In this document: one piece after another, positions 1-51,756 of the stretch | Layout: each line of letters begins with the position of its first letter | Numbering within the stretch: position 1 is the stretch's first letter | Source: an uncultured Alphaproteobacteria bacterium | GTDB lineage: Bacteria > Pseudomonadota > Alphaproteobacteria > JAJFIK01 | Reading direction: 5' to 3' | DNA: 64,000 bases | Assembly: GCA_964522525.1 (NCBI GenBank) | Contig: CAZFWG010000001.1 | Coordinates: forward strand, 36,341 to 100,340 | Translations under genes and position numbers: made by a program | The notes under the pieces: model-generated | Database searches by the model: none | Told to the model about the DNA's origin: nothing | What the model saw: the letters and a program-made list of their open reading frames with translations, nothing else

Positions 1-995
1 GCGACATCGACAGGCGCGTGATCGGTACGGGCCAGATCGGGACGAATATCCGCTTCAGCTTCTCATTCGATTCCGGCGGTGATCCGGTCACCGCACCTTC
101 TTCCGTTGTCGGAAAATTTCCCTCCGACAACGAGCAGAGCCGGGCGACCGGGCGTCTGTTGGGTCATTACCGCCGGGAAGTGGCCTTCTATACGCAATTC
201 GCGCCGGTCGCCGCGCGTATCGCTCCGGGGACCTATTTCGCGGAGCATGACGAGGAGACCGACGGTTTTGCCCTGATCATGGAGGACATGGCGCCTGCGC
301 TTCAGGGGGACCAGCTCACGGGCTGTTCCTTCGAGGAGGCCTGCCGGGCGTTGAACCATGCCGCGGTGCTGCATGCCAGCCATTGGAATGATCCGGGCCT
401 TGAGCGTTTCGATTGGCTCCAGGGATCATTGAGTGCCCCACCGGACCCCATCACACCGGAAATCGTGGCGGGTCTGTGGGCAGGGTTCAAGGAGCGGTAT
501 GCGGAACATCTGTGGCCCCAGGCCATGGCCGTGGGCGATGTGTTCGCGGCCCGGATCCCCGAATGGTCGTTCAGCTATCGGGGGCCGCGGTGTCTGACCC
601 ATGGGGACTATCGTCTGGACAACATGCTGTTTGGTGAGCCTTCCAACCCTCGCAGCCTCGCGGTGGTGGACTGGCAGACCGTGGGCGTCCGGGGCCCTGC
701 GCTCGATGTCTCCTATTTCATCGGCGCAGGTCTGACGCGGGCGGACCGCCGGCGCTTTGAACGTCCGCTTCTGGAGCATTATCACGCATCGCTGGTTCGC
801 GAAGGCATCCGGGACTACAGTTTCCAGCAGCTCTATCGGGACTACCGGTGGTTCTCTTTTTACGGACTTTCGGTCGCCTTCGGGGCCGCCATGCTGGTCG
901 AGCGCACGGAGCGGGGCGATGCCATGTTCCTGACCATGGCGCGGCGTCACATCGACCAGATCATTGAGCACAACGCCCTGGCGTTGCTGCCCTAA
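1..995 (+). CDS. Phosphotransferase family protein (aminoglycoside phosphotransferase/CHK-like kinase fold), 5' end truncated by window edge
   Basis: ORF 18..995 has no in-window stop upstream, so it continues off the left edge. It contains the Brenner-type catalytic motif HGDYRLDNMLF and a DW..VG motif typical of APH/ecdysteroid-kinase-like enzymes. Confidence 0.7.
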   Translation, partial: DIDRRVIGTGQIGTNIRFSFSFDSGGDPVTAPSSVVGKFPSDNEQSRATGRLLGHYRREVAFYTQFAPVAARIAPGTYFAEHDEETDGFALIMEDMAPALQGDQLTGCSFEEACRALNHAAVLHASHWNDPGLERFDWLQGSLSAPPDPITPEIVAGLWAGFKERYAEHLWPQAMAVGDVFAARIPEWSFSYRGPRCLTHGDYRLDNMLFGEPSNPRSLAVVDWQTVGVRGPALDVSYFIGAGLTRADRRRFERPLLEHYHASLVREGIRDYSFQQLYRDYRWFSFYGLSVAFGAAMLVERTERGDAMFLTMARRHIDQIIEHNALALLP

Positions 996-1912
996 CCCTC
1001 ATCTTCCGGGTCGATGAGGCGACCCTCCGCGTCCCGGATTTCCGGCCCATGAACGCGCGCCCGGCCGTCACCGAATTTGGCGTCCCGGGCCCGCAGCGTG
1101 GCCTTTAACCCGTGCTCGGCCACGGATTGCCGAAAAGCGTCCGCCGCCCTTGTATTATGGCCGCGCACGTCGTTTTCCGCCGCCAGCCGTTGCAGCGTGC
1201 GGGCGCCCATCAATTCAAGCCCCAGATTGACGATGCGCTTGTTGGCGCTCAACAGATCCGGATCGATCAGGGCCAGGCGGTCCGCCAGTTGCTCGACCTC
1301 CGCCTCGAGAAGATCGCCGGGGACGGCTTTCATCACGAGGCCGATGGATTGCGCTTCCGCCCCCGTGACCGTGTCGCCGGTCAGAAGAAGGCGCTTGGCC
1401 CATTGGGGCCCCACATTGTAAAGCCACAGATTGGTGGGCAGGGCGCCCAGATCCCGGGCCGGCGGAAACCCGAAACTCGCGTCCTCGGCGGCGACAACCA
1501 TGTCGCACAACAGGGCAAGGTCGGTTCCCCCGGCCAGGCAATAACCATGGACCTGGGCGATGACCGGCTTGTGCATGTCGAACAGCGCCATGCGATAGCG
1601 CTGCTGGCGCTCGAGTTGCCAGGCATCGTCGTCGAGGCGGCGATATCCCCGATAGCTGTTCTCCGCCGACTGAACACGGGACACGGGCACATTGCTGTCC
1701 TTTCCCGACAGATCGTAACCTGCGCAAAAGGCCCGGCCGGCGCCTTTCAGGATCACGCAATGGATGTCGAGATTGTTGTCCGCCTCCCACAAAGCTTCCG
1801 AAAGCTCCGCCTGCATTTTCAAGGACATGGCGTTGAGCTTTTCGGGGCGATTGAGGGTGATGCGGGCGCGGCCCTGTTCGACCTCATAGAGAATTGTTTC
1901 GAATGTTTCCAT
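992..1912 (-). CDS. Enoyl-CoA hydratase/isomerase (crotonase superfamily)
   Basis: Motifs LNRPEKLNAM and GAGRAFCAGYDL are present. Start chosen at METFETILYEV (ATG at 1912) with a GGAGGG RBS 7 nt upstream. The 18 upstream codons of the ORF lack an RBS. Confidence 0.8.
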   Translation of the reverse strand: METFETILYEVEQGRARITLNRPEKLNAMSLKMQAELSEALWEADNNLDIHCVILKGAGRAFCAGYDLSGKDSNVPVSRVQSAENSYRGYRRLDDDAWQLERQQRYRMALFDMHKPVIAQVHGYCLAGGTDLALLCDMVVAAEDASFGFPPARDLGALPTNLWLYNVGPQWAKRLLLTGDTVTGAEAQSIGLVMKAVPGDLLEAEVEQLADRLALIDPDLLSANKRIVNLGLELMGARTLQRLAAENDVRGHNTRAADAFRQSVAEHGLKATLRARDAKFGDGRARVHGPEIRDAEGRLIDPEDEG

Positions 1913-2038
1913 GGCGCCCTCCGATGGTTGCTCCCCCATCGTGACGGGATGGGGGAGAGGGGGCAAGGAAACAAAAAAAAGGGGCGCTCAAGACCTTGAT
2001 GGCCGGCGCCCCGAAGGTGGAGGATTGGTTGGCAGGTG

Positions 2039-4594
2039 TCAGAAGGTAAGCGCGATCCTGGCACTGTAGAAGCGGGGAGGACCGGCAATGAAGGTCGGAA
2101 TGCCGAAGGCACCGCCCGTGTTGCCGCCATCGATGATGTAATCCGTGTCAAGCACGTTGGCCACTTCAAAGGTCAGCTGAACCCGTTCGTCCGGCGTGGT
2201 GTAGCCTGTCCGGATGTTGAACAGGCCAAATGATTGTTGCGATACGGAGGGCACAGTGAAAACGAGGTCACCCGTCATCGGATCGAAGACGGGGACTGCC
2301 GTCTGGTTTTCGTCCTCGAAGAAAACGAGGGACTGCCACGTGTAGGTCGGTGTGACGAACAGGGATCCCCAGTCGTCAAGCTGGTGGACATAGGTCAAAC
2401 CGGCAGACACGGTGTGGTCCGGGCTGAGGCGGAAGCGGTTGCCGCCAAAGACCAGGGGGTTGCCTTCATCATCCGTATCGTCGAAGCGGCTGCGGTTGTA
2501 GCCATAGGTGATGAACAGGTCCAAACCGTCCGTCGGCGTCGCGAAGAACTGGGATTCGAAACCGATCGAGTCCGCGTTCCCCGCATTGATGGTCTCCGTC
2601 AGGCCGGTCGTGGCGTCCACGATGGTCGTGATGAAGTCGCGGTAGTCGTAGAAGAACACCGATCCCGAGGCTTCGAGACGACCATTGAAGAACAGGCCCT
2701 TGGCGCCGATTTCATAACTGTCCACGGTTTCGTCGGGCAGTTCCTCGAAGCCCAGAAAGACCGGGCCCGCCACATCGACCTCGATGATGTTGGGGCGGCG
2801 GCCCCGCGAATAGGAGGCATACAGATTGAGGTTCGGGTTGACGGCGTAATTGGCAACAGCCCGCCAGACGAAATCCGTGAAGTTTTCTTCGTCGGATTCG
2901 ATGACCGTGTTGCCCGTATCGGCCGCCAGGATGGTCTCGACCGGTTCCCCGTCCAGGGGATTGATGATCGGTGTCCCCCCGGTCAGGATGCCCGCGGCCG
3001 CGAGGGCGCTGACCCCCTCGACGGCGCCGCCGGAAAAGCCCGTCGTGCGGTCATCAAGGGTCCAGCGGATGCCACCCGTAAGCTCCAGGCCGTCGAACAC
3101 TTCAACGGTCAATTCCGCGAAGACGTCGAAGGCGTTATTTTCGGCGAAATTGGTGAACTGCTCCACGAAAAAGGGGCTCAGCGCGTTGAACGGGGGAACG
3201 CCGGTGACGATCGGTTCAAGCTGGGCCGGATCTCCGCTCAGGAAAATGGAGGTGAGCCCCGGATCGCCGAACAGGAACGTAGCGTCGGCGGGCAGACCAA
3301 GGGCCGCCGCCAGATCCGGGCTAGCGCCCGTCGCCGATACGGAAGAAAAGAGGGCGAGGAGGGCGCGTTCGTCAAAGCCGAGTGGGACCTGTTGGTCGCC
3401 GTTCTCGAAAAACACATTGCCGCCGAAAAAGCCCCTGAACCGTCCGCCCCGGTCGAAATTGAAGCGCAGTTCCTCACTCCATTGTTGACCGAAAGCATCT
3501 TCGGCGAAGATCAGGACGTCGAACGCCGTGCCGTCCGGATCGAAGATCTCCACGGAGTCGAATTGGCGATAGGCGGCGATGTTCGTGAAGGTCCAGGCTG
3601 GCGAGATCTCATACTCGACCTGTGTGGTGACGCCCCACACCTCGCGGTCCACGCTCAAGGGCTGGCCGCCAAGGAAGCCGCCGAACGTGTTGAGGGAGGC
3701 GAATTCGTTCGGGTCCGTCGTGCCGCCCAGGGCCGGGATCACGCCGCTCTTGAAAGAAGACCCCGGAGGCGTGTCGTGCTGATAGGAGGCGATCACGTCG
3801 ACGGTCAGTTTCGAGGTCGGCTGCCAACGGATGCTGCCCCGGGTCGCGACGGTCTGGGTGCCGTTCAGGGCGACCCCGGTATTGTTGTCGATGAACCCGT
3901 TGCGGAAGGTATAGTTGCCGGCAACACGCACGGCGAGTTTGTCCTCGATGATCGGAATGTTGACCCAGGCTTCGACTTCGTCCTGGGACAGATTACCGAA
4001 TTCATAGGAGACGAAAGCGCCCCGCTCATAATCGGGGCGTTTGGAATGGACCGAGATGGCCCCGATCTGAGCGCTGCGGCCGAACAGGGTGCCCTGGGGT
4101 CCTTTGAGGACTTCGACCCGGTCGAGATCGAACAGCTGCACGATGGAGCCGCGGGACCGGGAGATGCTGACCCCGTCCTGGAACACGGACACGCGCGGTT
4201 CGATGTTGGAAGCGCCTGAATCCGACGTAATGCCCCGGATCACGAAGCCCGGATTGTTGACGCTCTGCTCCTGAACCACGAGGCCCGGCACGAAACGGGC
4301 GAGCTCGTCGAATTCGGTGACGCCGATATCCTGAAGGAATGCCCCGTCATAGGCGGTGATGTTGATCGGAACATCGAGGATCGCTTCTTCGCGCTTCTGC
4401 GCGGTCACCAGGATCACTTCCCGGGTGCGGATGGACGGCACGTTGTCGTCGGCCGCCCGTTCCTGACCATTCTCGATGCCGACTTGATCTTCACTGTCGT
4501 CGGCTGTCTGGGCCAGGGCCGGTGCCCCACCCAGCAATGCGCCCGCGCATGCACCACTCAAAAGGCGCCGCCACAGACCGTTGCCCCGCTGCAT
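2039..4594 (-). CDS. TonB-dependent outer-membrane receptor
   Basis: 851 aa. N-terminal signal peptide ending ALAQ. TonB-box/plug region VILVTAQKREEAILDVPINITAY. C-terminal residue is aromatic (...ARIALTF), as in beta-barrel receptors. Confidence 0.85.
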   Translation of the reverse strand: MQRGNGLWRRLLSGACAGALLGGAPALAQTADDSEDQVGIENGQERAADDNVPSIRTREVILVTAQKREEAILDVPINITAYDGAFLQDIGVTEFDELARFVPGLVVQEQSVNNPGFVIRGITSDSGASNIEPRVSVFQDGVSISRSRGSIVQLFDLDRVEVLKGPQGTLFGRSAQIGAISVHSKRPDYERGAFVSYEFGNLSQDEVEAWVNIPIIEDKLAVRVAGNYTFRNGFIDNNTGVALNGTQTVATRGSIRWQPTSKLTVDVIASYQHDTPPGSSFKSGVIPALGGTTDPNEFASLNTFGGFLGGQPLSVDREVWGVTTQVEYEISPAWTFTNIAAYRQFDSVEIFDPDGTAFDVLIFAEDAFGQQWSEELRFNFDRGGRFRGFFGGNVFFENGDQQVPLGFDERALLALFSSVSATGASPDLAAALGLPADATFLFGDPGLTSIFLSGDPAQLEPIVTGVPPFNALSPFFVEQFTNFAENNAFDVFAELTVEVFDGLELTGGIRWTLDDRTTGFSGGAVEGVSALAAAGILTGGTPIINPLDGEPVETILAADTGNTVIESDEENFTDFVWRAVANYAVNPNLNLYASYSRGRRPNIIEVDVAGPVFLGFEELPDETVDSYEIGAKGLFFNGRLEASGSVFFYDYRDFITTIVDATTGLTETINAGNADSIGFESQFFATPTDGLDLFITYGYNRSRFDDTDDEGNPLVFGGNRFRLSPDHTVSAGLTYVHQLDDWGSLFVTPTYTWQSLVFFEDENQTAVPVFDPMTGDLVFTVPSVSQQSFGLFNIRTGYTTPDERVQLTFEVANVLDTDYIIDGGNTGGAFGIPTFIAGPPRFYSARIALTF

Positions 4595-4857
4595 CCCACA
4601 CTCCTTAAGTTCTGGCCTAAAGGTCTAGAAAGACAGACCCCGGAACAAGCTCGTCCTGACCCACGAGCATTCTTCCGCGCAAATTGTCGGGGCACGGCGC
4701 AACGGGCATATGTCGGGGAGACGAAGCTTTTGTGACGCCAGAGGGCGTTGAGGGGGAGGCAGGGGCGGGGTCTCGGGGCAGGCGGGCATGGAAGCGCCGG
4801 GGAGCGCTGCCGCGATCCGGCGACGGACCGCGACGGCGGGGTGGTCGTATCTGGGTC

Positions 4858-5598
4858 TTAGCGGCGGGTCATGAAGGCCGCGATCCGCTCCTGCATGTCC
4901 GGGCCGACGCCTTCATTTTCCATGACTTCCCATTGCAGGCCCGCATCCATGGCGCGGGCGTCGGTCGCCTCGAGGAGCCGCTTGTTCGCCCGGTGACTGA
5001 AGGGCGAGTTGGCGGTGATTTCCCGGGCAACGGCCGTCACTTCGTCGAAGAACCGGTCGTCCGGAAAGACCGCTTCGGCAAGGCCCATTTCCACGGCCTG
5101 GGTGCCGTTGATCGTCCGGGCGGTGAACATCATGAATTTGGCTTTGGCCAAGCCGACCCGCCGGGGCAGGCGCTGGCTCATGCCCCAGATGGGCGTCAGG
5201 GCGAAACGGGCATGGGTATCGGCGAAGCGCGCATTCTCCGCCGCCAGAATGAAATCGGCGGCGAGGGCCACTTCGAGGGCGCCCGTATAACAATGTCCGT
5301 GGACGGCGGCGATCACCGGCTGGGGCAGGCGTTCCATCATCCGCAAGGTTTCGGAATGCCACCCCGGCGAGGGCACGCTTTCGCCCGCCGCAATGTCGCC
5401 CAGGTCGTGGCCGGCGGAGAAACAGCGTCCGGCACCGCCCAGAACCACGCAGCCGATGGTCTTGTCGCGGGCGAGATCGACCACATGGGCGCGCAGTTCC
5501 GCGAACAGGGCCACGGTCAAGGCATTGAGCTTTTCCGGCCGGTTGAGGGTCAGGAAGGCGGTGCCGTCCCGATCCTCCCTGACGACGAGCCCGGTCAC
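4858..5598 (-). CDS. Enoyl-CoA hydratase/isomerase family protein
   Basis: Motifs LNRPEKLNAL and GAGRCFSAGHDL are present. Its start (ATGA) overlaps the stop of the upstream P450 by 4 bp, indicating translational coupling. Confidence 0.8.
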   Translation of the reverse strand: MTGLVVREDRDGTAFLTLNRPEKLNALTVALFAELRAHVVDLARDKTIGCVVLGGAGRCFSAGHDLGDIAAGESVPSPGWHSETLRMMERLPQPVIAAVHGHCYTGALEVALAADFILAAENARFADTHARFALTPIWGMSQRLPRRVGLAKAKFMMFTARTINGTQAVEMGLAEAVFPDDRFFDEVTAVAREITANSPFSHRANKRLLEATDARAMDAGLQWEVMENEGVGPDMQERIAAFMTRR

Positions 5599-6920
5599 GC
5601 AGGGCTCCCCATCTCAACCTTCAGCATACGAATGGCATGCACGAAATTGTTGGGGGCGATATCCACCTCGCCGGTCCAGGCAATTTCCGGGAAGCGGCCG
5701 AGGATCTGGCGATAGGCGGCTTCGAGCTGCATATTGGCGACCCGCTGTCCGAGGCACACATGGGGGCCAAGCCCGAACGCGATGTGTTCCTTGGCGTTTT
5801 CCCGCGTCACGTCGAAGCGGTCCGGATTCGGATAGACATCCGGGTCCCGGTTCGCGGCGCCGTAATACATGACGATCTTCTCGCCTTCGGCAATCTTCTG
5901 CCCCCGGATCTCGGCGTCGCGCGTGGCCGTGCGGCGCATATAGATCACGGGCGAGACCATGCGGATGGCCTCATGGACCATGTTGCCGATCAGGTCCGGG
6001 TTGTCGATCAGCTTCTGCTTTTCCTTCGGAAACTCCGTCAACAGCTTCATGGTGCCTGACAGGGAGTTGCGCGTCGTGTCGTTGCCGGCAAAGACGATGA
6101 GGAGCCAGGAGCCGTCCAGATAGTTGTCGGAAAGAAGCTCCCCGTCGATGCGGGCATTGGCGATCGCCGACAGCAGATCCTGGCGGGGCTCCTTGCGACG
6201 GGCCTTCAGGACATATTGTCCGTAATCAAACATCTCCTGGATGGCTTCCAGGAACTTCATCAGGAAATCCGGGTCCACTTCGCCGAGTGCCTTCTGCTGG
6301 AAGGTGTAGGAGGCGATTTCCAGATAATGCATCCAGCCCACAAGTTTCGGCCGGTCCGCCTCGTCGACGCCCAGGATCTCGCACAGGGTGAAAAGGGGCA
6401 GTTCGGCGGAAAAATGCTCGACCATGTCGACCCGTGGGCCCTGGCGCACCATGCCGTCAAGAAGGCTGCTCACCTTGACGTCCACCTTCTTGCGCAACTC
6501 CTCCACATAGGTCGGTGTGAAGAAGCTCATATGCTCCCGGCGCAGGGGCATGTGATGGGGCTGGTCGAGGCAGATCATGGTGTCGAGGGAGGAGCGGTGG
6601 AGCAGGGGATGGCGTTGATCCTCCCGCCCGTAGGTCATCAGGATGCCGCCCCGCTGGGAGGAAAAGGTCGCGGTGTCCAGTTCCACGCTGCGCACATCGT
6701 CATATCGGGTCAGGGCCCAGAAGCCCGGCCCTTCCTGGACGGGATGCCACATGACGGGGGCATGGTCGCGCATGGCGCGGAACGCCTCATGGGGCTGACC
6801 GGTGACGAAGGGGCCATTGTCGGCCAGATTGACCGGTGGTTCGAGGGGGAAGACGGGGGCGTATTTCGGATCCCGCGCGTCCATATCTTCCTGGTAGGTT
6901 TCACTTACCGGTTGCAGCAT
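5595..6920 (-). CDS. Cytochrome P450 monooxygenase
   Basis: Heme-binding loop FGLGPHVCLGQRVA (FxxGxHxCxG), an AGNDTT I-helix motif and an ExxR motif are present. Length 441 aa. Confidence 0.85.
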   Translation of the reverse strand: MLQPVSETYQEDMDARDPKYAPVFPLEPPVNLADNGPFVTGQPHEAFRAMRDHAPVMWHPVQEGPGFWALTRYDDVRSVELDTATFSSQRGGILMTYGREDQRHPLLHRSSLDTMICLDQPHHMPLRREHMSFFTPTYVEELRKKVDVKVSSLLDGMVRQGPRVDMVEHFSAELPLFTLCEILGVDEADRPKLVGWMHYLEIASYTFQQKALGEVDPDFLMKFLEAIQEMFDYGQYVLKARRKEPRQDLLSAIANARIDGELLSDNYLDGSWLLIVFAGNDTTRNSLSGTMKLLTEFPKEKQKLIDNPDLIGNMVHEAIRMVSPVIYMRRTATRDAEIRGQKIAEGEKIVMYYGAANRDPDVYPNPDRFDVTRENAKEHIAFGLGPHVCLGQRVANMQLEAAYRQILGRFPEIAWTGEVDIAPNNFVHAIRMLKVEMGSPA

Positions 6921-7030: not shown

Positions 7031-8260
7031 CTATTCGTGGCGGAGGGCGTCGATCGGATTGAGCCGGGCGGCCCGCCGGGCGGGGACATAGCCGAAAACG
7101 ATGCCCACGCCGCCCGAGGCCACCAGGGCGAGGATGACGGTGCCCAGATCGATCACGATCGGCCAACCGGCAATCGCCGCCGAGGCCAGCGCCCCGCCCA
7201 CGCCGATGACAAGCCCGATCAGGCCGCCGATCAGGCACAAAGTGACCGCTTCGACCAGGAACTGCATCAGGATGGCGCTGGCCCGCGCGCCGACGGCCAT
7301 GCGCAACCCGATCTCCCGGGTCCGCTCGGTCACCGAGACGAGCATGATGTTCATGATGCCGATCCCGCCCACGAGAAGAGAGATCATTGCCGTTGCCAGG
7401 AGAAGCCAGGTCAGGGTCGAAAAGGTTGCTGTCCGGGCCCGGATCAGGTCAGCAAAATTGTTGACACGAAAGTCATCTTCCGAGCCCGGCGCAATACGAC
7501 GGCGTACCCGCATCAAGTCGGTGATCTCATCGGTCAGCGGATCAAGGTCGTCAACGCTCTGGGCCTTGATGAAAATGGCCTGGACCTGGTCGGGTACGGT
7601 GCTGGCCCGTTCCCCCAGAAGGCGGCTTCGGCCCGTGCGCAAGGGCACAAGGATGACGTCATCCTGGTCGCGACCGAAGCTGCTCTGGCCCCGGCTTTCC
7701 ATGACGCCGATCACTTCCATGGGCACATTGGAAATGCGGATGCGCGCGCCCAGGGCCGACCCCTGGAAAAGCTGATCACGGATGGTTGTGCCGATAATGG
7801 CGACCCGTGCCCCCCGCCGGCTTTCGTCCTCGCTGAAGAAACGGCCCTCGAGCACCTTCCAGTCCCGCACAAAGGGATAGCTGCTCTCGACACCGATTAC
7901 CGTTGTCGTCCAGTTGGCGGCGCCGGCGATGATCGGCGCCTGGGTCTGGACATAGCCCGAAACGCCGGCTACGCCGGGCAGGGCCCGGATGGCCCGGACG
8001 TCCCCTTCCGTCAGGGGCTTTGCCGTCCCGGCCCCGCCAAACCGGCCGCCAAGCCGGGACGACCCCGGAAAGATGTTGAGGAGGTTGGAGCCAAGCTGGG
8101 AAATCCGTTCCTCAACGGATTGGCGCGCGCCGGCGCCAACGGCCACCATGATGATCACCGACGCAACGCCGATAATGATGCCAAGGGTGGTCAGGATCGA
8201 GCGCAGCGTGTTGGCGCGGATCGCCTTGACGGCGATAGCGAAGGTGTCAACCAGTCTCAT
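7031..8260 (-). CDS. ABC transporter permease, MacB/FtsX family
   Basis: 409 aa. N-terminal TM helix, a large periplasmic domain, then three C-terminal TM helices (FtsX-like). Start overlaps the ATPase gene stop (8257..8260). Confidence 0.8.
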   Translation of the reverse strand: MRLVDTFAIAVKAIRANTLRSILTTLGIIIGVASVIIMVAVGAGARQSVEERISQLGSNLLNIFPGSSRLGGRFGGAGTAKPLTEGDVRAIRALPGVAGVSGYVQTQAPIIAGAANWTTTVIGVESSYPFVRDWKVLEGRFFSEDESRRGARVAIIGTTIRDQLFQGSALGARIRISNVPMEVIGVMESRGQSSFGRDQDDVILVPLRTGRSRLLGERASTVPDQVQAIFIKAQSVDDLDPLTDEITDLMRVRRRIAPGSEDDFRVNNFADLIRARTATFSTLTWLLLATAMISLLVGGIGIMNIMLVSVTERTREIGLRMAVGARASAILMQFLVEAVTLCLIGGLIGLVIGVGGALASAAIAGWPIVIDLGTVILALVASGGVGIVFGYVPARRAARLNPIDALRHE

Positions 8261-8970
8261 GGTGCGTCCCTCCGCCGGTCCTCGACGATCAGCCCGTCGC
8301 GCAAGTGGATCTGGCGCCGGGCATAGACCGCGACCTCCGGATCATGGGTCACGACAATCACGGTACGGCCCTGTCCGTTCAGGGTAACGAACAAGTCCAT
8401 GATCTCTTCGGATGTATTGGTATCCAGGGCGCCCGTCGGCTCGTCAGCCAGCAGAATACGAGGGTCGTTGACAAGGGCGCGGGCGACGGCCACCCGCTGC
8501 TGTTGGCCCCCGGAGAGTTGCGACGGATTGTGATCCATCCGGTCGCTCAAGCCTACATCCTTGAGACAGCGTTCGGCGATGCCATCGGCATTGTCCACCG
8601 GCTGGCGGGCATAGAGCAGGGGCAGTTTCACATTGTCGAGGGCCGTTGTGCGGGGCAGCAGATTGAATTGCTGGAAGACAAAGCCGATCGTGGCGTTGCG
8701 CAGATCGGCAAGACCATCCTGCCCGAGACTGTTCAGGTCCTGGCCGGCAATGGCGAGGCGCCCCGTGGTGGGCGTGTCAAGCGCCCCCAGCAGGTTCATC
8801 AGCGTGGATTTTCCGGATCCGGACGGTCCCATGATGGCGACGAATTCGCCGGGCTCGATGGTGAAGGATACGCCCCGGAGCGCGGCGACTTCCTGGTCCC
8901 CCATGCGATAGATGCGACTGACCTCGTCACAGAGAATGTCGAGGCCCGGATTCGCGGCGACGGTGTTCAC
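8257..8970 (-). CDS. ABC transporter ATP-binding protein (MacB/LolD-type ATPase)
   Basis: Walker [10 protein letters not shown], signature [15 protein letters not shown], Walker [13 protein letters not shown]. Overlaps the upstream adaptor gene by 4 bp. Confidence 0.85.
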
Positions 8971-10463
8971 GAGGCGCTCCGCCGAACCCGTGTCGCCACG
9001 GCCTCGCCCGGTTCGAGCTCACCGGCGATGACTTCCACATATTGCCCGTCATCGAGGCCGAGCAAGACGGGGCGCGCCTCAAGGCGCAGCGAAGACACGG
9101 CGACCCAGACATTGGTCGCGCGGGCCTCCGGGAGACGGCCCTTGAGCGCCTCATAGGTCGGCTTTTGGGTGTCCGTCAGAAGATCCGCAAAGAGACGATC
9201 AATGGCGGCCAGGCGAAGCTGGCGCAAGCGGGCCGGATCAAAACCGGCCGGCGGGGCGCCTGATGGACCGCCACGGTTTCCGCCGGACCGGCGGCGCTGA
9301 CGGGCCCGTTCCGCCATGGCTTCAAGGCCCGCCTCCAGTTCTTCTTTCTGATCCGCCGTCAAATCAAGAGCGGCGGCCATGGCGAGCACGGTCGTGCGCA
9401 GCCCGGCCCGGCGATCGGAAGCACTGGTGCGTTGTTCCCCTGGCGGAATGAAACGCGCGGCGGCGACGGGGACGCGCATCACATCCTCGACGCTGCCCGT
9501 GGTGATCTCCGCCGTGGCGGTCATGCCGGGGAAGAGCCGCTGGTCCCGATTGGTGGCCGAAATGATGACCGTGTAGGTCACCACGCTGGCGATTTCCGTC
9601 GCGGCGAGACGGACCTGTTTGACGACACCTCGAAAAACCCGATCAGGAAAGGTGTCGACACTGAAGGTCACGGGATCGCCCGTCTCGATCCGGCCCACAT
9701 CGGCCTCGTTGACATCGGCCGCGACCTGAATGATCGAGAGGTCCTGGGCGATGGTGAACAGGATCGGGGCCTGGAGGCTCGCGGCCACGGTCTGGCCCAC
9801 ATCCACGTCCCGGCTGACGATCACCCCGTCAATGGGCGAGCGGATTTCGGTGCGCTCCAGATCGATCCGGGCCTGTTCAAGGGTTGCCGCGCGCTGCAGA
9901 ACCACGGCTTTTGCGTTGTCCACCTGCGCCTTGGCGATGCTGAGATCGGCCGTGGCCACGGCGACATCCGTCTGGGCGTTTTCAAGGGCGGTCTGGGCGG
10001 CGGTGCCCCGCTCGGCAAGACGGCTCTGGCGATCGGCCTCGCGCCGGCTCTGCTGCAACACGGCTTCGGCCTTGGCCACATTGGCGATCTGGATGGCGAG
10101 GGAGGCTTCGGCCACCGCCAGATCCGCCTCCGCCGAGGCCACCCGGCTGGCAAAGGTCTGGGGATCGAGCTGGGCGATGAGCTGATCCTTCGTGACCTGA
10201 TCATTGTAGTCCGCGTAGATGGCGGCGATCTGGCCGGAGAGTTGGGAGCCCACTTCGACGGTGACCACGGGTTCGACGCGTCCGCTTGCGGTCACGCGCT
10301 GGACGACGGCACCGCGATCGACCGTCTCGGTGTCATAGGCCGTGCCCGGCGCCTCGGTGTCCACCGATCTGTAAGCGAAATAGAGGACGGCCGAGATTGC
10401 CAGCACCCCCACGAGGGCGGGCCACCCGAACCATCCCAATCGTCCATGCCGGCCAGTCGCCAT
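8967..10463 (-). CDS. Efflux periplasmic adaptor (membrane fusion protein, HlyD/MacA family), with a ~90-aa Arg/Gly/Pro-rich insertion near the C-terminus
   Basis: N-terminal TM anchor, RVEPVVTVEVGSQLSGQI beta-barrel/lipoyl motif, long coiled-coil (LSIAKAQVDNAKAVV...) and a membrane-proximal domain ending VWVAVSSL...DGQYVEVIAGELEPGEAV. Confidence 0.8.
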   Translation of the reverse strand: MATGRHGRLGWFGWPALVGVLAISAVLYFAYRSVDTEAPGTAYDTETVDRGAVVQRVTASGRVEPVVTVEVGSQLSGQIAAIYADYNDQVTKDQLIAQLDPQTFASRVASAEADLAVAEASLAIQIANVAKAEAVLQQSRREADRQSRLAERGTAAQTALENAQTDVAVATADLSIAKAQVDNAKAVVLQRAATLEQARIDLERTEIRSPIDGVIVSRDVDVGQTVAASLQAPILFTIAQDLSIIQVAADVNEADVGRIETGDPVTFSVDTFPDRVFRGVVKQVRLAATEIASVVTYTVIISATNRDQRLFPGMTATAEITTGSVEDVMRVPVAAARFIPPGEQRTSASDRRAGLRTTVLAMAAALDLTADQKEELEAGLEAMAERARQRRRSGGNRGGPSGAPPAGFDPARLRQLRLAAIDRLFADLLTDTQKPTYEALKGRLPEARATNVWVAVSSLRLEARPVLLGLDDGQYVEVIAGELEPGEAVATRVRRSAS

Positions 10464-13095: not shown

Positions 13096-13289
13096 GTCAG
13101 CGCAACACCGTTTTTCTGCGGCTTTTTCTCCTTTGGCATCCCTGTCTGACCTGCCCGTCACCTTTCTTCGTCTTCTCCTTTGCTGCAAAGCAGCATGAAA
13201 TTCCAGTTCACGGCCCCCTGACACGAATGTTACTCTGCTTGTTAACTATTGAGGGGACCGAAAAAAGCTATCTGGGGAGCGAGAAGCCA

Positions 13290-16160
13290 ATGGAGTATTT
13301 CGGGCGGTTTGCGGCGTGGACGGCACTGGGCACCATCCTGGCCTTGACGCCGGCATGGGCACAGGATGCTGAGGATACTCAGCCAGCGGAAGACAATCAG
13401 TCCTCGGATGAGGGCATGACCCGGGACGAGGCGGTCCAAAGCGGCATCGAACTGATGACCGTGACGGCTCAGAAGCAGGAAGAGTCACTCCTCGATGTGC
13501 CGATCGCCGTGACCTCCCTGGGTGAGGAAGCACTTGAGCTGCGTCAGATCGACAACTTCTCCGACATCCAGTTCAACACGCCCAACCTGACCTTCCAGAA
13601 AGGTCAGTTCACGGGGACGAACATCCAGATTCGCGGGATCGGCTCGGCCCTGACGGCGGCCTCCGCGGATAGCGGGATCAGTACCCACGTCAACAACGTG
13701 TTCTTCCAGTCGCCGCGCCTGTTCGAGACGGAGTTTTTCGACGTCGAACGGGTCGAAATCCTGCGCGGGCCCCAGGGCACCCTGTTCGGACGCAACGCCA
13801 CGGGCGGCGTGATCAATGTCATCACCGCCCGGCCCGACCTTCAGGACTATGGGTTCAATGTTCAGGCCGAATACGGGAACTTCAACAACATTCGTGTCAA
13901 AGGCCACGCGAATGTGCCCATCATCGAGGACAAACTCGGGATCCGCGTCGCCGGTATCTATCTGGAGCGCGACGGCTTCACCGAGAACATCTTCACCGGC
14001 AATGACATTGACGGTCGTGAACAGTTCTCCGTGCGCGGATCACTGCGTTTCACGCCGACGGAACGGACCACGATCGACATCATCGGCTCCTATTTCCAGG
14101 AGGACGACAATCGGGTCCGTTCGGCCAAACAACTGTGTAACCGCGACCCCAGCGGCGTTCTGGGTTGTCTGCCGGACAGGCTTGCCTTTGACGTGCCGAA
14201 CGGCAATGCGACGCTGGGCGGCCTGCTCGTCACGGATCTGATTCTCGGGCCGCTCGCGCTGACGCCCTTTGCCGGACCGGGCGGCGGGGCCACCGCCTTC
14301 AACCCGCCGGACCTGCGCGTCGTCAATGTGGATTTCGAGCCGATTTTCGAGGCGGACGAGACCTTCATCATTGCCTCCTTCACCCAGGAACTGACCGACA
14401 GTCTGACCCTCGTCATCGAAGGCGGCTATCAGGAGACGTCCTTTTTCTCGCAGCAGGACTTCAACAATCAGTTCCTCGCCGATGAGTTCGCTGTTCCCGA
14501 CCTTCTGGCGACGGCATTCCCCACTGTCTTCGAGACGTTCTTTGCCGGAGATCGGTTCCCGATTTCCGCGATCGATGCCGGAAACACCGGCCTCATCGGC
14601 GGGAACATCCTCTCCGATCAGGCCTTCTTCAACGAGGGCTATGACCAGTCCAACATCGATGCGGAACAGTTCAGCGCCGAGATCCGTCTGCAATCTGATT
14701 TCGAAGGGCCTTTGAACTTCCTCGTCGCCGGTTACTACCTCGACAGCGAATCGGAGTCCGATTATTTCGTCGTCGCCAACAGCCTCGACTATTTCTCCCT
14801 GGTCGGAGCGGGCGTGGACGGCATCGGGCTTGTGGCGCCGTTCTTCCGCAGTGAGACGGATCTGTTCGAGCTTCAGTCCTTCGCCTTTTTCGGCGAGGCC
14901 TATTATGACGTGACCGATACCTTCAAGATCACCGGTGGCATCCGCTACACGGTCGATGACAAGGAAATCAGGGACCGCCAGCTTCTGCTGAACACGGCCG
15001 TGCCGATCGGCACCACCGATGCGAACCCCGCCCTGGCACTGGTCGATGCGGATGTCACGGCGCCAGGTATCCAGGAATTCAGGGATGCGGGCGTCGTCTT
15101 CCAGGAGGTGACCGGTCGTTTTGTCGCCCAATGGACCCCGGAACTGTCGTTCACGGATTCCACGAACATCTATTTCTCCTATTCCCGGGGCTTCAAGAGC
15201 GGGGGCATCAATCCGCCTTTCGATGCGGCGCTTTTCCCGAATGTGCCGGCCTTCTTCGATCCTGAATTCATCAACGCCTATGAAGTCGGGACCAAGAACT
15301 CCCTGTTCGGCAATCGCCTCCAGGCCAACCTCACGGGCTTCTTCTATGACTATTCCGGGCTGCAGATTTCCCAGATCGTCAACCGGACATCGGTCAACGT
15401 GAATGTGGATGCCCGGATTTTCGGCCTCGAAGCCGAATTCCTCGCGGCGCCCACGGACAACTGGCTGTTCAATCTCGATATCGGTTACTTGAACACCTCC
15501 ATTCAGGATACGGCCATTGTTGATCCCCGTGATCCCAGCAACGGATCGGACGACGTCACGTTGATCAAGGATTTCGCCGATGCCTCCAACTGCGTCGTGG
15601 ACCACAATGGGGGCGGGGACCTGATCTCGTCCGGTGTCGCCGATGCGCTTGGTGCCGCCGGTGTTCCCTTCATTCCCGCCCAGACGCCGGGCATCGCCTT
15701 CTCCGGGTTCAGCACATGTGCCGGCCTTCAGGCGGCCCTGCAGGCTCTGGGTGTGCCCCAGTTCGTGACCGACGGCGTGCCGCAGGATCTTGATGGCAAC
15801 AATCTTCAGAACTCCCCGGAATTGACCTTCAATATCGGGGCTCAGTACACCTATGATTTCAATCTCGACGGGCGGAGCCTCGCTCTTGAGACACGGGTGG
15901 ACTACTACTATCAGACCAGCTTCTTTGGTCGGATCTTCAACGACCCGATCGATGAGTTCGACGCCTTCGGCCATTTGAACCTGCAAGTGACCCTGTATGG
16001 CCCGGATCAGGACTGGTTCGTGCGCGGGTTTGTCCAGAACCTGACCAACAATGATGCGATTACCGGTCAGTTCCTGACCGACGCCTCTTCAGGTTTGTAT
16101 ACGAATGTCTTCGTGCTCGACCCGCGCCTGTTCGGCGGTGAGATCGGCTACCGTTTCTGA
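13290..16160 (+). CDS. TonB-dependent outer-membrane receptor
   Basis: Start at MEYFGRFAAWTALGTILALTPAWAQ (signal peptide, GGGAG RBS). TonB-box/plug IELMTVTAQKQEESLLDVPIAVTS. C-terminus ends ...GGEIGYRF. Confidence 0.85.
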   Translation: MEYFGRFAAWTALGTILALTPAWAQDAEDTQPAEDNQSSDEGMTRDEAVQSGIELMTVTAQKQEESLLDVPIAVTSLGEEALELRQIDNFSDIQFNTPNLTFQKGQFTGTNIQIRGIGSALTAASADSGISTHVNNVFFQSPRLFETEFFDVERVEILRGPQGTLFGRNATGGVINVITARPDLQDYGFNVQAEYGNFNNIRVKGHANVPIIEDKLGIRVAGIYLERDGFTENIFTGNDIDGREQFSVRGSLRFTPTERTTIDIIGSYFQEDDNRVRSAKQLCNRDPSGVLGCLPDRLAFDVPNGNATLGGLLVTDLILGPLALTPFAGPGGGATAFNPPDLRVVNVDFEPIFEADETFIIASFTQELTDSLTLVIEGGYQETSFFSQQDFNNQFLADEFAVPDLLATAFPTVFETFFAGDRFPISAIDAGNTGLIGGNILSDQAFFNEGYDQSNIDAEQFSAEIRLQSDFEGPLNFLVAGYYLDSESESDYFVVANSLDYFSLVGAGVDGIGLVAPFFRSETDLFELQSFAFFGEAYYDVTDTFKITGGIRYTVDDKEIRDRQLLLNTAVPIGTTDANPALALVDADVTAPGIQEFRDAGVVFQEVTGRFVAQWTPELSFTDSTNIYFSYSRGFKSGGINPPFDAALFPNVPAFFDPEFINAYEVGTKNSLFGNRLQANLTGFFYDYSGLQISQIVNRTSVNVNVDARIFGLEAEFLAAPTDNWLFNLDIGYLNTSIQDTAIVDPRDPSNGSDDVTLIKDFADASNCVVDHNGGGDLISSGVADALGAAGVPFIPAQTPGIAFSGFSTCAGLQAALQALGVPQFVTDGVPQDLDGNNLQNSPELTFNIGAQYTYDFNLDGRSLALETRVDYYYQTSFFGRIFNDPIDEFDAFGHLNLQVTLYGPDQDWFVRGFVQNLTNNDAITGQFLTDASSGLYTNVFVLDPRLFGGEIGYRF

Positions 16161-16189
16161 TCCCGCACCTTTCGCTAGAAGGCTTGCCA

Positions 16190-16226
16190 TCCCCGCGCTC
16201 GGCCTCATGGGCGCGGGGATTTTTCG
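16190..16226 (+). terminator. Rho-independent terminator after the TonB-dependent receptor
   Basis: Perfect 8-bp GC stem CCCCGCGC / GCGCGGGG with a 12-nt loop, followed by ATTTTT. Confidence 0.65.
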
Positions 16227-16358
16227 TTGCTGCCTGAAGATCGCCCTCGACTTTTCCGGCTTCTCGCATCCGTGTCCCTGTCCTAGACTGACTGGAAACC
16301 GGGTAATTCCGCTTCCCGGGCTAAGCGTGTCAGCGTGATGGCGATTATGGGGGTTCCT

Positions 16359-18269
16359 ATGGAAAAGCGACGTCTGTTTTGCCTTGCAGCCACGGGGCTC
16401 ATTCTTGGCCTGATGATCCGCGTGACGGATGCCGGGGCCGTTGATCCAGACCTTGATCGAACGGACGAGGCGATCGGGGCGGAATTTGAGGAATTGGGTG
16501 AGGCCCAGGAACATGTGCTCGTGCCCATGCGTGACGGGATCGGGCTTTCCACCAATATTTATCTGCCTAAGGACCGGGATGGTCCGGTACCGGCCGTGTT
16601 CTGGCGCACGCCCTATCGGTTCACGCCCTTGCGCACGACACACAAGCGCATGGCGCTCAAGGCCATGCGCCGGGGCTATGCGTTCGTGATTCAGAATGAG
16701 CGCGGCAAGTTCTTTTCGGAAGGGGAGTTCGAGATCCTCGGCTATCCGCAGACGGATGGTGTGGATGCCTTGGACTGGATCGCGGAACAGGACTGGTCCA
16801 ACGGTAAAGTGGGGACGCTCGGCTGTTCCTCGCCCGCGGAATGGCAGATGGCGCTTGCCGCCCAGGATCACCCGGCCCATGCCGCCATGGTGCCGATGGC
16901 GCCGGGGGCCGGCATCGGCAAGATGGGGCCCTATTGGGAGCAGGGAAACTGGTATCGGGGTGGGGCGGAGCAAATGTTCTATCCGCCCTGGCTCTATAGC
17001 GCCGTGCAAAGCCCGTTGCGCCCCCAATTGCCCAAGGGTCTGAGCCAGGAGGAGCGGGCGCGGCTCGCTTCCTACTACACGCTTGCGGCCAAGATGCCCG
17101 AGGTCGATTGGGCCAAGGCCATCCGCCATCTGCCCTTGAGCCGGATGATGCGGGAGGTGAAGGGGCCGCGCGGCACCTGGGATGATTATGTTTCGCGCAC
17201 GCCAGGCGATCCGGGTTGGCGTGAGGGTGGATTGTTCCATGACGACATGAAGATCGGTGTTCCGTCCTTGTGGATCTATTCCTGGTTCGACGTCTCCATC
17301 GGTCCCAATCTGGCGCTGTTCAACCATGCCCGCACCAACGCCACCGACCGTCAAACGGCGCGCGACCAGTTCATGGTGGTGGGCCCCAATCTCCATTGCG
17401 CGTTTTTCAGGGATAACAGCGATCTGACCGTTGGGGAACGGAAAATGGGCGATGCCAGTTTCGATTATGAGGAACTGATCTATGCGTTTTTCGACCGGCA
17501 TCTGAAGGGGGAGCGCAACGGGTTCCGCCGCAACAATCCGCCGGTGCGTTATTTCAATATGGGAGAGAACAAATGGCGGGAGGCGGATCAATGGCCGCCC
17601 GCCGGAACCAAGACTCGCACGCTCTATCTGACCAGCGAGGCCGGTGCCAATTCTCTCTATGGGGACGGGACGCTTGTCTCGGAAGCCCCCGAAACAGCGG
17701 CAGCGGACGGTTTCACCTATGATCCCATGAACCCGGTGCCCTCGAAGGGCGGCGGCATCTGTTGCATTGGCGATGCGGTGGAGGGCGGCGTCTTTGATCA
17801 GCGTCCCATTGAGGTGCGTCACGATGTCCTCGTCTACACGACGGCACCGTTGGAAAGCGACATGGACGTGACGGGACCCGTGGGTGTCACCCTCTATGTC
17901 TCGTCCGATGCACCGGACACGGATTTTACGGTGAAGCTGATCGATGTTCAGCCCGACGGCACGGCGTTCAATGTCGACGAAACGATCCAGCGCGTGCGCT
18001 GGCGGGAAGGGTATGACCAGGACCCGGTCTTCATGGCGGCGGGGGAGATCTATGAGGTCAGCATCCAGCCCATGGCCACGGCGACGCGGTTCAAGAAGGG
18101 CCACCGGATCCGTCTCGAGGTTTCCTCATCGAACTTTCCCCGCTTCTCCCGCAACCTGAACACGGGCGGCGCCAATTACGATGAAAGCGAACCGCGGGTT
18201 GCGAAAAACAAGGTGCATCACGGGCCGGACCATCCGTCCCGTCTGGTCCTGACGGTGGTTGAAGACTGA
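16359..18269 (+). CDS. CocE/NonD family hydrolase (Xaa-Pro dipeptidyl-peptidase S15-like alpha/beta hydrolase)
   Basis: Signal-peptide-like N-terminus MEKRRLFCLAATGLILG. CocE/NonD-like blocks (GYAFVIQNERGKF, DGVDALDWIAEQDWSNGKVGTLGCS) and a C-terminal beta-sandwich (GHRIRLEVSSSNFPRF). Start is uncertain; ATGs occur at 16335, 16347 and 16359. Confidence 0.7.
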   Translation: MEKRRLFCLAATGLILGLMIRVTDAGAVDPDLDRTDEAIGAEFEELGEAQEHVLVPMRDGIGLSTNIYLPKDRDGPVPAVFWRTPYRFTPLRTTHKRMALKAMRRGYAFVIQNERGKFFSEGEFEILGYPQTDGVDALDWIAEQDWSNGKVGTLGCSSPAEWQMALAAQDHPAHAAMVPMAPGAGIGKMGPYWEQGNWYRGGAEQMFYPPWLYSAVQSPLRPQLPKGLSQEERARLASYYTLAAKMPEVDWAKAIRHLPLSRMMREVKGPRGTWDDYVSRTPGDPGWREGGLFHDDMKIGVPSLWIYSWFDVSIGPNLALFNHARTNATDRQTARDQFMVVGPNLHCAFFRDNSDLTVGERKMGDASFDYEELIYAFFDRHLKGERNGFRRNNPPVRYFNMGENKWREADQWPPAGTKTRTLYLTSEAGANSLYGDGTLVSEAPETAAADGFTYDPMNPVPSKGGGICCIGDAVEGGVFDQRPIEVRHDVLVYTTAPLESDMDVTGPVGVTLYVSSDAPDTDFTVKLIDVQPDGTAFNVDETIQRVRWREGYDQDPVFMAAGEIYEVSIQPMATATRFKKGHRIRLEVSSSNFPRFSRNLNTGGANYDESEPRVAKNKVHHGPDHPSRLVLTVVED

Positions 18270-24366: not shown

Positions 24367-25425
24367 CTACGCGCCATTCGGTGAAGCTGGGATCACGGCG
24401 GGTGCCTCCGGTGTGCCCGGCGGATTGGCTTTGGCATTGACCCAGACGATGCCGTCCTGAATGCCCACGCGATAGGTCGCAATCTTTTCCTGGTAGGGCG
24501 GCGGGGATTGCCCGCTTTCCGGCAGATATTGGTAGCCGTGCCAGGGACAGGTGATGCAGCCGTCGACGACGCGCCCTTCACCCAGGGGGCCGTTCTGATG
24601 GGCACAGACATTGCTGACGGCGGCGATCTTTCCGTCATATCGGAAGACGGCGATGCTGTCTTCGGGCCGGTGGATGATCTTGGCACGGTTGTTCGCGATA
24701 CTGTCGATGGGACCGACCTCGATCCACTCCTCGTCGATCACGGGGGAAACCCGGTCCGCGAAGGCCCGGCTCGTGCTGGTGATCAGGTGAAGCCCGCCGA
24801 CCCAGATGACGCTGCCCGCCAAAAGAGCCCAATAGGTCATGGACACTTCGTCCTGAAGAATGCCGAGTGCGATATGGACGCACAATGCCGCATAGGCGAC
24901 ATAGACGAACATATGAAGCGCCTTCCACAAGGGCGGCGACAGATTGGCGAGCCAGAAATCATGACTGGTCGCCGCCATCACGAACAAGACGATCAGCGCG
25001 AAGAACCCGAAGACTTCAAAGGGAATGACGGCGGTGGTCGAATAGTCCGCACTGGTGGCAAACAGGGAGACCAGAGGGCTGAGCACGCCGAAGCCGTGAT
25101 ACCATCCGAGGGCGATCACAAAATGGAAAAGCGCGATGAAGAAGGTGACCACACCGAAATGGCGCCGATTGTACAGCAGCGGCAGGAAGACCGTATTGAG
25201 TCGCGCCAGCGGACCGATGGACAGGATGATGGTCAGCATCAGGAAGGCACAGGTACCGAGCGCCCGGATCGCCATGATCGGCGGGCTGATCTCGTGGCCG
25301 GGTTCGGCGGTCAGAATGGAGACGACCATGAAGGTGACGAGATAGAGAACCACGCCCAGGCCCAGAAACAGATCATAGATCTTCTTGTTCCGGTTCCAGA
25401 GAACCATATTGTATCCGACGGCCAT
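24367..25425 (-). CDS. Fusion of a ferric-reductase-like (FRD/MsrQ-type) di-heme transmembrane domain with a C-terminal Rieske [2Fe-2S] domain
   Basis: Six predicted TM helices with two H-x12-H pairs on separate helices (RRHFGVVTFFIALFH and LHMFVYVAYAALCVH), the bis-His heme-b ligation pattern of FRD domains. The C-terminus has Rieske boxes CAHQNGPL and CPWHGYQY. Strong GGAGGGAG RBS. Confidence 0.7.
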   Translation of the reverse strand: MAVGYNMVLWNRNKKIYDLFLGLGVVLYLVTFMVVSILTAEPGHEISPPIMAIRALGTCAFLMLTIILSIGPLARLNTVFLPLLYNRRHFGVVTFFIALFHFVIALGWYHGFGVLSPLVSLFATSADYSTTAVIPFEVFGFFALIVLFVMAATSHDFWLANLSPPLWKALHMFVYVAYAALCVHIALGILQDEVSMTYWALLAGSVIWVGGLHLITSTSRAFADRVSPVIDEEWIEVGPIDSIANNRAKIIHRPEDSIAVFRYDGKIAAVSNVCAHQNGPLGEGRVVDGCITCPWHGYQYLPESGQSPPPYQEKIATYRVGIQDGIVWVNAKANPPGTPEAPAVIPASPNGA

Positions 25426-25468
25426 GGTGTCTCCCTCCGATCCGCGGTCCTCCGCGGTCTGTCAGCAG

Positions 25469-28511: not shown

Positions 28512-28689
28512 CAGGGACGGTCCTTTCGGTCGTTTCTTGACCCTTCACAGATTATGTTTCCCACGGTCATGCCCCGGGCGTCACCAGTTTACCATTGTAA
28601 AAAATGCGCGATCACAGAAAACAACTTGTCGTAAGCGGTTGAGACGGTCGAGCATGGCGCTCCCGGCGGTCACAAGGAGAGAATGCCCC

Positions 28690-47297: not shown

Positions 47298-47485
47298 GGC
47301 TTTTTCTTCCCCAAGCCACGCATGGCGCCCTAGAAAAAAACGAATGAACCCACCATAAATCAATTAGTTAACACGAATATACCGACCGGTCTAGCACATT
47401 AAGAGACTGGCATATAATGGTCGCTTCACGGCAAAATCAGGGCATGGAAGTGACGGGGATAGCGTTAGCCAGTGGAGTCATCTCA

Positions 47486-48274: not shown

Positions 48275-48352
48275 GGCCGGGGTTGGAATCCGCGTCCGCA
48301 CGGCCCATGCTGGGTCCCAATGGACCGGTTTGAAACAGGGGAGACGCCAGCC

Positions 48353-51607: not shown

Positions 51608-51756
51608 GATGCCCCTATCTGTGCCTGAACCGGATGATCTGTCCAGCCCTCCCGGGGGGCCGTTCCCCGTCCCCTTGATGTCCGGGCGCGGACACCCGAC
51701 GTAATGGACGCAGGATGGCAGTCGGTGCTGGACGCCGCCAATCGAGGAGACAAGCC

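Follow-up and report, generated by a model that had tools for sequence, protein, structure and literature searches.

Do the five genes at positions 1 to 6920 of a 64-kb window from an uncultured alphaproteobacterium (contig CAZFWG010000001.1, positions 36,341 to 100,340) form a single catabolic locus? They encode a kinase-like protein of the APH/EcKL fold, two members of the crotonase superfamily (here ECH1 and ECH2), a TonB-dependent receptor and a cytochrome P450, and an original prediction made from the letters of this DNA took them for a block devoted to uptake and oxidation of a hydrophobic substrate. By the window we mean the whole 64-kb stretch, which holds 47 predicted open reading frames (ORFs); 38 of these, all but nine mostly small ones, were scanned against profiles. 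We conclude that positions 1 to 6920 are probably a mosaic of at least four transcription units and not one catabolic operon. Apart from one conserved pair of genes, the locus is largely an ordinary stretch undergoing rearrangement.

The ORF listing, third-position GC and the Pfam and NCBIfam scans all bear out the five genes and their families, and the 4-bp overlap between the P450 and a crotonase gene and the 263-bp gap in front of the receptor are both where they had been reported. The four minus-strand proteins also occur as exact sequences in a public protein collection, each on a 115,397-bp NCBI contig, so our gene starts agree with the source's own calls. The kinase-like gene had been placed on the minus strand with the rest, but belongs to the plus strand: the frame on that strand holds an HGDYRLDN catalytic loop and the Pfam matches, its third-position GC is 0.75 and its 5' end lies beyond the left edge of the window. 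Its TAA stop codon (993 to 995) overlaps that of ECH1 at 992 to 995, the two genes being convergent. This leaves four co-directional genes, and the minus-strand run extends past the P450 gene to position 11914, through genes for an unrelated efflux system of the MacAB type (a MacB permease, an ABC ATPase and an HlyD-type adaptor) and for an SBP_bac_3 protein. Co-directionality is not a special property of the five-gene block.

Within the block, P450 and ECH2 appear to be the only tightly coupled genes. The P450 stop codon and the ECH2 start overlap as GTGA (5595 to 5598) with a Shine-Dalgarno-like GGGGAG upstream, which points to a translationally coupled pair. The co-directional catabolic block of the original prediction thus survives in part: four of its genes share the minus strand and two of them are coupled, but the kinase-like gene stands apart and the whole is not one unit.

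The receptor gene probably has regulatory signals of its own. A conserved block of about 45-55 nucleotides, TCAYNRAAGCTTCR...TCAGTCAC...CGTTGTGCAYTGCAC..., could be aligned upstream of the receptor in the window and in two of the related loci fetched for comparison (designated L001 to L030), namely L029 and L005. The gene preceding this element varies, being ECH2 in the window, the P450 in L029 and an oxygenase in L005, and its retention behind different genes argues for a receptor-specific regulatory or promoter region. L024, which lacks the receptor gene, retains an orphan copy directly after ECH2 (8065 to 8140), and the receptor ORF would thus seem to have been cleanly deleted there. Overall, the distribution of the element suggests an ancestral order P450-ECH2-receptor and later deletions of single genes. 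In the regions upstream of the P450 and of ECH1, aligned across relatives, conservation is limited to the ribosome-binding sites (that of ECH1, whose ATG is at 1912, reads GGAGGG).

At the other end of the receptor gene, a GC-rich hairpin begins 27 nucleotides past the stop codon and is followed directly on its 3' side by UUUUUUUU, as in an intrinsic terminator. The fold energy of the 91-nucleotide stretch that includes it, -20.3 kcal/mol, corresponds to an unremarkable z-score of -1.05 (not significant), so it is the motif that carries the terminator call. A terminator pattern scan gave nothing above shuffle level and missed this site (1973 to 2012) because its loop and bulge exceed the limits of the scan. 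The receptor orthologue of L029 likewise ends in a hairpin, here followed by T6.

Is the gene order maintained in related genomes? Counting the window, our clade sample comprises five arrangements from six assemblies, the other four arrangements coming from five related assemblies with P450s 78-81% identical to that of the window. In the window, the P450 is followed by ECH2, the receptor, ECH1 and the convergent kinase-like gene. L021 has ECH2 (with an ATGA overlap) and an M23 peptidase gene after the P450, with neither receptor nor ECH1, while L024 has ECH2 (again with an ATGA overlap), AHSA1, a small gene, glyoxalase, ECH1 (88% identical) and SDR, with no receptor. In L029/L030, a 370-bp gap after the P450 leads to the receptor (73%), AHSA1, an HTH regulator, glyoxalase and lpxB; ECH2 is absent, and ECH1 is not near the P450, being located elsewhere (L026) in the assembly of L030. 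Finally, the P450 of L005 is followed by an opposite-strand GGDEF-EAL gene, Ada-like and oxygenase genes, the receptor (73%), a hypothetical gene, ECH1 (87%) and a radical SAM gene; ECH2 is missing and the receptor lies 5 kb from the P450.

The five-gene order is repeated in none of the other four arrangements, and all partners occur together in the window only. The P450-ECH2 pair with its 4-bp overlap is found in three of the five arrangements, window included, as is a receptor near the P450; ECH1 is near the P450 in three as well, and the kinase-like gene in one. The proposed linkage of the five genes through uptake and oxidation is not supported, as close relatives have lost or relocated ECH2, the receptor and ECH1 independently of one another.

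What does persist around the P450 is of another kind. An SBP_bac_3 gene precedes it in every clade locus (in L021, opposite-strand ccm genes intervene), and the backbone second receptor-DUF3011-SBP_bac_3-P450 is common to the window, L021, L024 and L029/L030, with hisI past it in the window, L024 and L029/L030; of this backbone only DUF3011, SBP_bac_3 and the P450 are visible on the L005 contig, which ends early. Since the conserved backbone includes plainly unrelated genes, synteny here reflects shared ancestry and not function. Two local features of the window were also seen in this comparison. A MacB/ABC/HlyD-type tripartite efflux set separates the SBP_bac_3 gene from the P450 and is not at the equivalent position in any related locus (L005, L021, L024, L029), so that it looks like an insertion specific to the window's genome. 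The gene for the second TonB-dependent receptor (977 residues) is followed after 175 bp by a co-oriented gene for an S15 X-Pro dipeptidyl-peptidase/CocE-type hydrolase, which is not found between the second receptor and hisI in L024 and L029.

At larger distances the linkage disappears. P450 orthologues at 65-71% identity have housekeeping genes around them and none of the partners; the ECH2 of Henriciella marina (72%) lies near priA and ATP synthase genes; an ECH1 that is 81% identical sits in an unrelated aromatic-type neighbourhood; and neither a crotonase nor a P450 gene was found near the more distant receptor homologues (12 loci, 44-55% identity, up to 10 kb of flank). In L002 (10001 to 12435), a P450 71% identical to ours overlaps a DUF2855 gene by 4 bp, with no crotonase gene there, which indicates that the coupled downstream partner of the P450 varies between lineages. 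Beyond close relatives, these genes do not appear to constitute a conserved functional cluster.

A single five-gene operon was rejected: the kinase-like gene is on the other strand, the 263-bp gap holds a receptor-specific element, and a hairpin with its U8 tract stands before ECH1. In the mosaic that we favour, the first unit would be P450-ECH2, which co-produces a class-I type P450 and an atypical enzyme of the crotonase fold; most likely the pair would oxidise a hydrophobic acyl or isoprenoid-like compound and then act on a CoA thioester. The second would be the receptor, independent and probably a single-gene unit with its own 5' element and hairpin-U8 terminator. The substrate of this receptor is not indicated by its gene neighbours. 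ECH1, a very highly conserved atypical crotonase, would be expressed separately as a third unit, and the APH/EcKL-like kinase gene would form a fourth, transcribed from the opposite strand. The order P450-ECH2-receptor...ECH1 is then best seen as an ancestral arrangement of the clade, decaying through independent deletion, insertion and relocation.

What do the individual proteins say about function? The P450 belongs to its superfamily on all counts: it scores 95.8 bits against a cut-off of 22.8 (Pfam PF00067), and its translation carries the FGLGPHVCLG heme loop, the FAGNDTT I-helix and the EAIR (ExxR) motif, all intact. Its top match in the PDB is the reconstructed CYP125 ancestor (CYP125MRCA, 1.6e-79), natural CYP125 chains matching more weakly than the ancestor (1e-48 to 1e-49); further matches are CYP268A2 (2e-65), P450tol, CYP126, CYP124 (about 1e-57) and CYP153 (1e-54 to 1e-57). 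All of these matches act as terminal hydroxylases on sterols, branched lipids, alkanes or other hydrophobic substrates of that kind. In this respect the structure search supports the original prediction.

The P450 and CYP125MRCA share 150 identities over 395 aligned positions, or 38%. By the usual convention, P450s of one family have at least 40% amino-acid identity; we therefore rejected membership of CYP125, and the P450 would represent a separate, uncharacterised family. A CYP153 alkane hydroxylase system was rejected as well: CYP153 chains rank under CYP125, CYP268 and CYP124, and neither a ferredoxin nor a ferredoxin reductase is present among the scanned ORFs. The matches listed include 119 non-identical homologues (63-81% identity), mostly without names; those that are named come from the marine alphaproteobacterial genera Henriciella, Hyphomonas, Hellea, Aquisalinus and Parvularcula and from unclassified metagenome-assembled genomes (MAGs) of Alphaproteobacteria or Pseudomonadota. 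A plasmid search with the P450 returned no match above 38% identity, and a metagenome scan a single weak locus, L018.

Both crotonases clearly fall in the superfamily, at 145 bits (ECH1) and 150 bits (ECH2, 8.6e-44) against a cut-off of 27 (Pfam ECH_1). ECH1 passes the cut-off of NCBIfam NF006128 (PRK08272; 325.2 versus 257), a family to which no substrate is assigned; the best model for ECH2, PRK06190, stays under its own (193.6 versus 253). The closest structures are both of uncharacterised proteins, 3njb for ECH1 and the mycobacterial EchA16_2 (3qyr) for ECH2. Canonical enoyl-CoA hydratase (EC 4.2.1.17) uses two catalytic glutamates, Glu144 and Glu164 in rat numbering. As read from an alignment to an ECHS1 active-site segment, ECH2 keeps the first glutamate and has histidine for the second, and ECH1 has aspartate and proline at the two positions. 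We therefore did not retain either protein as a canonical hydratase, the pair being incomplete in ECH2 and missing in ECH1, and the term 'enoyl-CoA hydratase' would for both be a superfamily label and not an established activity. ECH1 homologues among the matches listed (P0245-P0363) are 77-88% identical, with source names that include Alphaproteobacteria, Gammaproteobacteria, Pseudomonadales and Desulfurellaceae MAGs. ECH1 thus appears to be an unusually constrained atypical crotonase despite lacking the glutamate pair. The ECH1 family and the P450 orthologue group, which is large, uncharacterised and in one clade coupled to an EchA16-like crotonase, are reasonable biochemical targets, although neither is surprising.

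Elsewhere in the window, a third crotonase (300 residues) abuts a thiolase (437 residues) with no gap, with a zinc alcohol dehydrogenase gene upstream on the opposite strand and a gene for a TetR regulator close by. As a beta-oxidation-type unit, this group is more convincing than the five-gene block. With three crotonase genes and two TonB-dependent receptors among its predicted ORFs, the window is rich in both, and chance adjacency becomes easier.

The kinase-like protein matches the Pfam families EcKL (1.7e-16), DUF1679 and APH (1e-11). We found no homologue of it in the 30 fetched loci, every ECH1 context included, and the gene appears to be a neighbour specific to the window's genome. Its weak similarity to ACAD11 and to 3dxp in the PDB is confined to about 43 residues at the catalytic loop (E-values 1.4e-5 and 1.9e-3). 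A 4-hydroxyacyl-CoA kinase of the ACAD10/ACAD11/LvaA type acting with ECH1 was rejected on these grounds, together with the opposite strand and the unconserved adjacency. No acyl-CoA dehydrogenase gene is in view next to the kinase-like gene, whose left-hand neighbours are outside the window.

Could the block nonetheless be a clade-specific module, in which a hydrophobic substrate (terpenoid, steroid or alkane-like) enters through the receptor, is hydroxylated by the P450 and is passed to beta-oxidation by the two crotonases with help from the kinase? We consider this unlikely, even though it accounts for some of what we see. The place of the P450 in the CYP125/268/124/153 clan and its repeated coupling to ECH2 would suit such a pathway, but both crotonases lack the canonical hydratase glutamate pair, and the block has no CoA ligase, acyl-CoA dehydrogenase, hydroxyacyl-CoA dehydrogenase, thiolase, ferredoxin, ferredoxin reductase or regulator gene. 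Similarly, the receptor recurs near the P450 and bears no iron or B12 signature, but it has its own 5' element and terminator-like hairpin, and its distant homologues never adjoin a P450 or crotonase gene. There is a precedent in EdcT and EdcA of Novosphingobium tardaugens (PMC7793797); in our clade, however, each related genome has lost or relocated partners independently, all being present in the window only, and the kinase-like gene is both unique to this genome and on the opposite strand. Finding a receptor gene beside a P450 gene and 'beta-oxidation-type' genes is insufficient to call an uptake-and-oxidation locus, and this caution applies most strongly to genomes rich in TonB-dependent receptors and crotonase paralogues.

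The receptor deserves separate consideration. Its plug (PF07715) and barrel (PF00593) domains both score above the Pfam cut-offs, and with a signal-like N-terminal sequence and a C-terminus ending in ...ALTF it qualifies as a TonB-dependent receptor. Among the 12 loci with distant homologues, three (L011, L013 and L017, all gammaproteobacterial and 47-49% identical) have a gene for a PhoD-like phosphatase directly downstream; other downstream genes encode an AMP nucleosidase in one locus (L012) and a DUF900 hydrolase in two. L011 and L017 also have in common a Pho-box-like repeat, GTCATCGCAGTGTCAA, about 68 nucleotides upstream (-67 and -69). These distant homologues hint at uptake of organophosphate- or nucleotide-type compounds by this receptor family, rather than of lipids. 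The receptor of the window might by the same token serve to take up organophosphates or nucleotides as nutrients under phosphate starvation, its place between lipid-type genes being incidental; this strikes us as improbable: the best Pho-box match in its upstream region, 8 of 14 positions, is at shuffle level, no phosphatase gene lies beside it or its 73% identical orthologues in L005 and L029, and receptor specificity can change at 50% identity. We found nothing specific in the literature linking TonB-dependent receptors, PhoD and phosphate starvation.

An ordinary role in the uptake of siderophores, haem or B12 is very improbable: the receptor's best NCBIfam model is indeed the generic siderophore-receptor subfamily TIGR01783 and its PDB matches are siderophore receptors, but the model scores 164 against a cut-off of 223.5, the structural similarity is limited to the plug domain, and there are no adjacent siderophore or ABC-uptake genes. 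No other curated NCBIfam receptor model reaches its cut-off either (the B12 model TIGR01779 scores 23.8 versus 599.7). The gap at 4595 to 4857 contains no Rfam family, hence no cobalamin riboswitch; with E-values up to 1, Rfam returned a PhoTORC-like PhotoRC-I match there (19.6 bits versus a gathering score of 45), which is at chance level. Searches for Fur, Irr and RirA boxes upstream of the window receptor and its two orthologues found none above shuffle level. We therefore rejected the siderophore and B12 classes, in line with the original prediction, which had set iron and B12 transport aside. It had also allowed that the linkage of the five genes would be incidental if the receptor clustered with siderophore or B12 transporters and was transcribed separately; no such clustering was seen, while separate transcription is probable given the 5' element and the terminator-like hairpin.

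Several points weigh against a mosaic of separate units. Read-through of the hairpin, or a long transcript from upstream of the P450, is possible, and no sigma-70 consensus promoter was found for the receptor, nor anywhere else in positions 1 to 7300, gap included; this consensus fits alphaproteobacteria poorly. The ancestral order P450-ECH2-receptor, as we reconstruct it, is compatible with a former functional module, and in three of the five arrangements the P450 and the receptor are on the same strand and at most 5 kb apart. The clade sample is limited to those five arrangements (six assemblies). As for the receptor's own affinities, the PhoD association is seen only in gammaproteobacterial homologues, and the region upstream of the window receptor has no Pho box.

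Three further proteins of the window were noted. Two are unusual Rieske fusions encoded close to each other: one joins a ferric-reductase-type transmembrane domain to a Rieske domain (364 residues), and the other an N-terminal Rieske domain to a full acetolactate-synthase-type thiamine-pyrophosphate enzyme (678 residues). The third, of 917 residues, matches Sulfotransfer_2 weakly at its N terminus, after which come about 650 residues of low-complexity sequence rich in Pro, Ala and Glu. Coordinates are collected in the table below.

Table. Coordinates of the features discussed, in the window unless another locus is named
Feature	Position	Strand	Remarks
APH/EcKL-fold kinase-like gene	3..995	+	5' end cut by window edge; convergent with ECH1
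ECH1, crotonase	992..1912	-	306 aa; ATG start; PRK08272 subfamily
Terminator-like hairpin and U8	hairpin 1981..2012, U8 1973..1980	-	between receptor and ECH1
TonB-dependent receptor	2039..4594	-	851 aa; plug and beta-barrel domains
Intergenic region ECH2/receptor	4595..4857	-	263 bp
Conserved receptor upstream element	4690..4735	-	TCAYNRAAGCTTCR...CA...CGTYG; about 100-140 nt before ATG
ECH2, crotonase	4858..5598	-	246 aa; GTG start; EchA16-like
Cytochrome P450	5595..6920	-	441 aa; CYP125/268/124/153 clan
MacB/ABC/HlyD-type efflux set	7031..10463	-	
Second TonB-dependent receptor and S15/CocE-type hydrolase	13227..18269	+	
Sulfotransfer_2-like protein	18905..21658	+	
Rieske fusion with ferric-reductase-type domain	24367..25461	-	
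Rieske fusion with acetolactate-synthase-type enzyme	26508..28544	-	
Zinc alcohol dehydrogenase	46254..47363	-	
Third crotonase and thiolase	47372..49588	+	
TetR regulator	51002..51787	-	
Receptor homologue and PhoD, L011	611..4548		
Receptor homologue and PhoD, L013	680..4806		
Receptor homologue and PhoD, L017	9842..13983		pair overlaps 4 bp

How does the locus compare with known systems? In actinobacteria, CYP125, CYP124, CYP142 and CYP268 are terminal hydroxylases of sterols and branched lipids whose genes neighbour those of side-chain hydratases. The window resembles them in its best solved-structure matches and in having a P450 gene next to an acyl-CoA hydratase-type gene. However, the window comes from a Gram-negative marine alphaproteobacterium, its P450 is partnered by an EchA16-like crotonase with an incomplete catalytic pair, and FadE, Ltp2 and FadD are absent. 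The CYP153 operons of marine and soil proteobacteria have the order ferredoxin-CYP153-ferredoxin reductase. They too rely on a soluble class-I P450 for terminal hydroxylation of hydrophobic chains, but CYP153 is more distant from the window P450 than the CYP125-like matches are, and redox-partner genes were not found among the ORFs scanned.

The receptor-PhoD pairs involve the same receptor family, with 47-49% identity over the full length; the window receptor differs from them in having neither a phosphatase neighbour nor a Pho box. The kinase domains of ACAD10 and ACAD11 are APH-fold 4-hydroxyacyl-CoA kinases (PMC12440821, PMC11342911). Here too, a gene for an APH-fold kinase lies beside one for an acyl-CoA-type enzyme, but no acyl-CoA dehydrogenase accompanies them, the kinase-like gene is read from the other strand, and none of the other ECH1 contexts examined shows the adjacency.

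A further parallel is the edc cluster of Novosphingobium tardaugens, in which the P450 EdcA and the TonB-dependent receptor EdcT take part in estrogen degradation, the receptor acting in steroid uptake (PMC7793797). The comparison with receptor-linked catabolic loci suggested by the original prediction therefore yields a genuine precedent, an alphaproteobacterial locus with a P450 and a TonB-dependent receptor together. It goes no further than this: edc comprises two divergent, substrate-induced operons with genes for a ring-cleavage dioxygenase, a decarboxylating oxidoreductase and beta-oxidation, EdcT being last in one of them (PMC7793797), whereas the window block has none of these other partners, its receptor comes with a 5' element and terminator of its own, and relatives do not keep the linkage. 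There is a slim chance that the ancestral order P450-ECH2-receptor is the remnant of a module combining TonB-dependent import of an amphipathic or hydrophobic compound, a new CYP125-like P450 family and a one-glutamate crotonase. If so, it would provide a further case of TonB-dependent uptake of a lipid-like compound after EdcT, in abundant marine Alphaproteobacteria.

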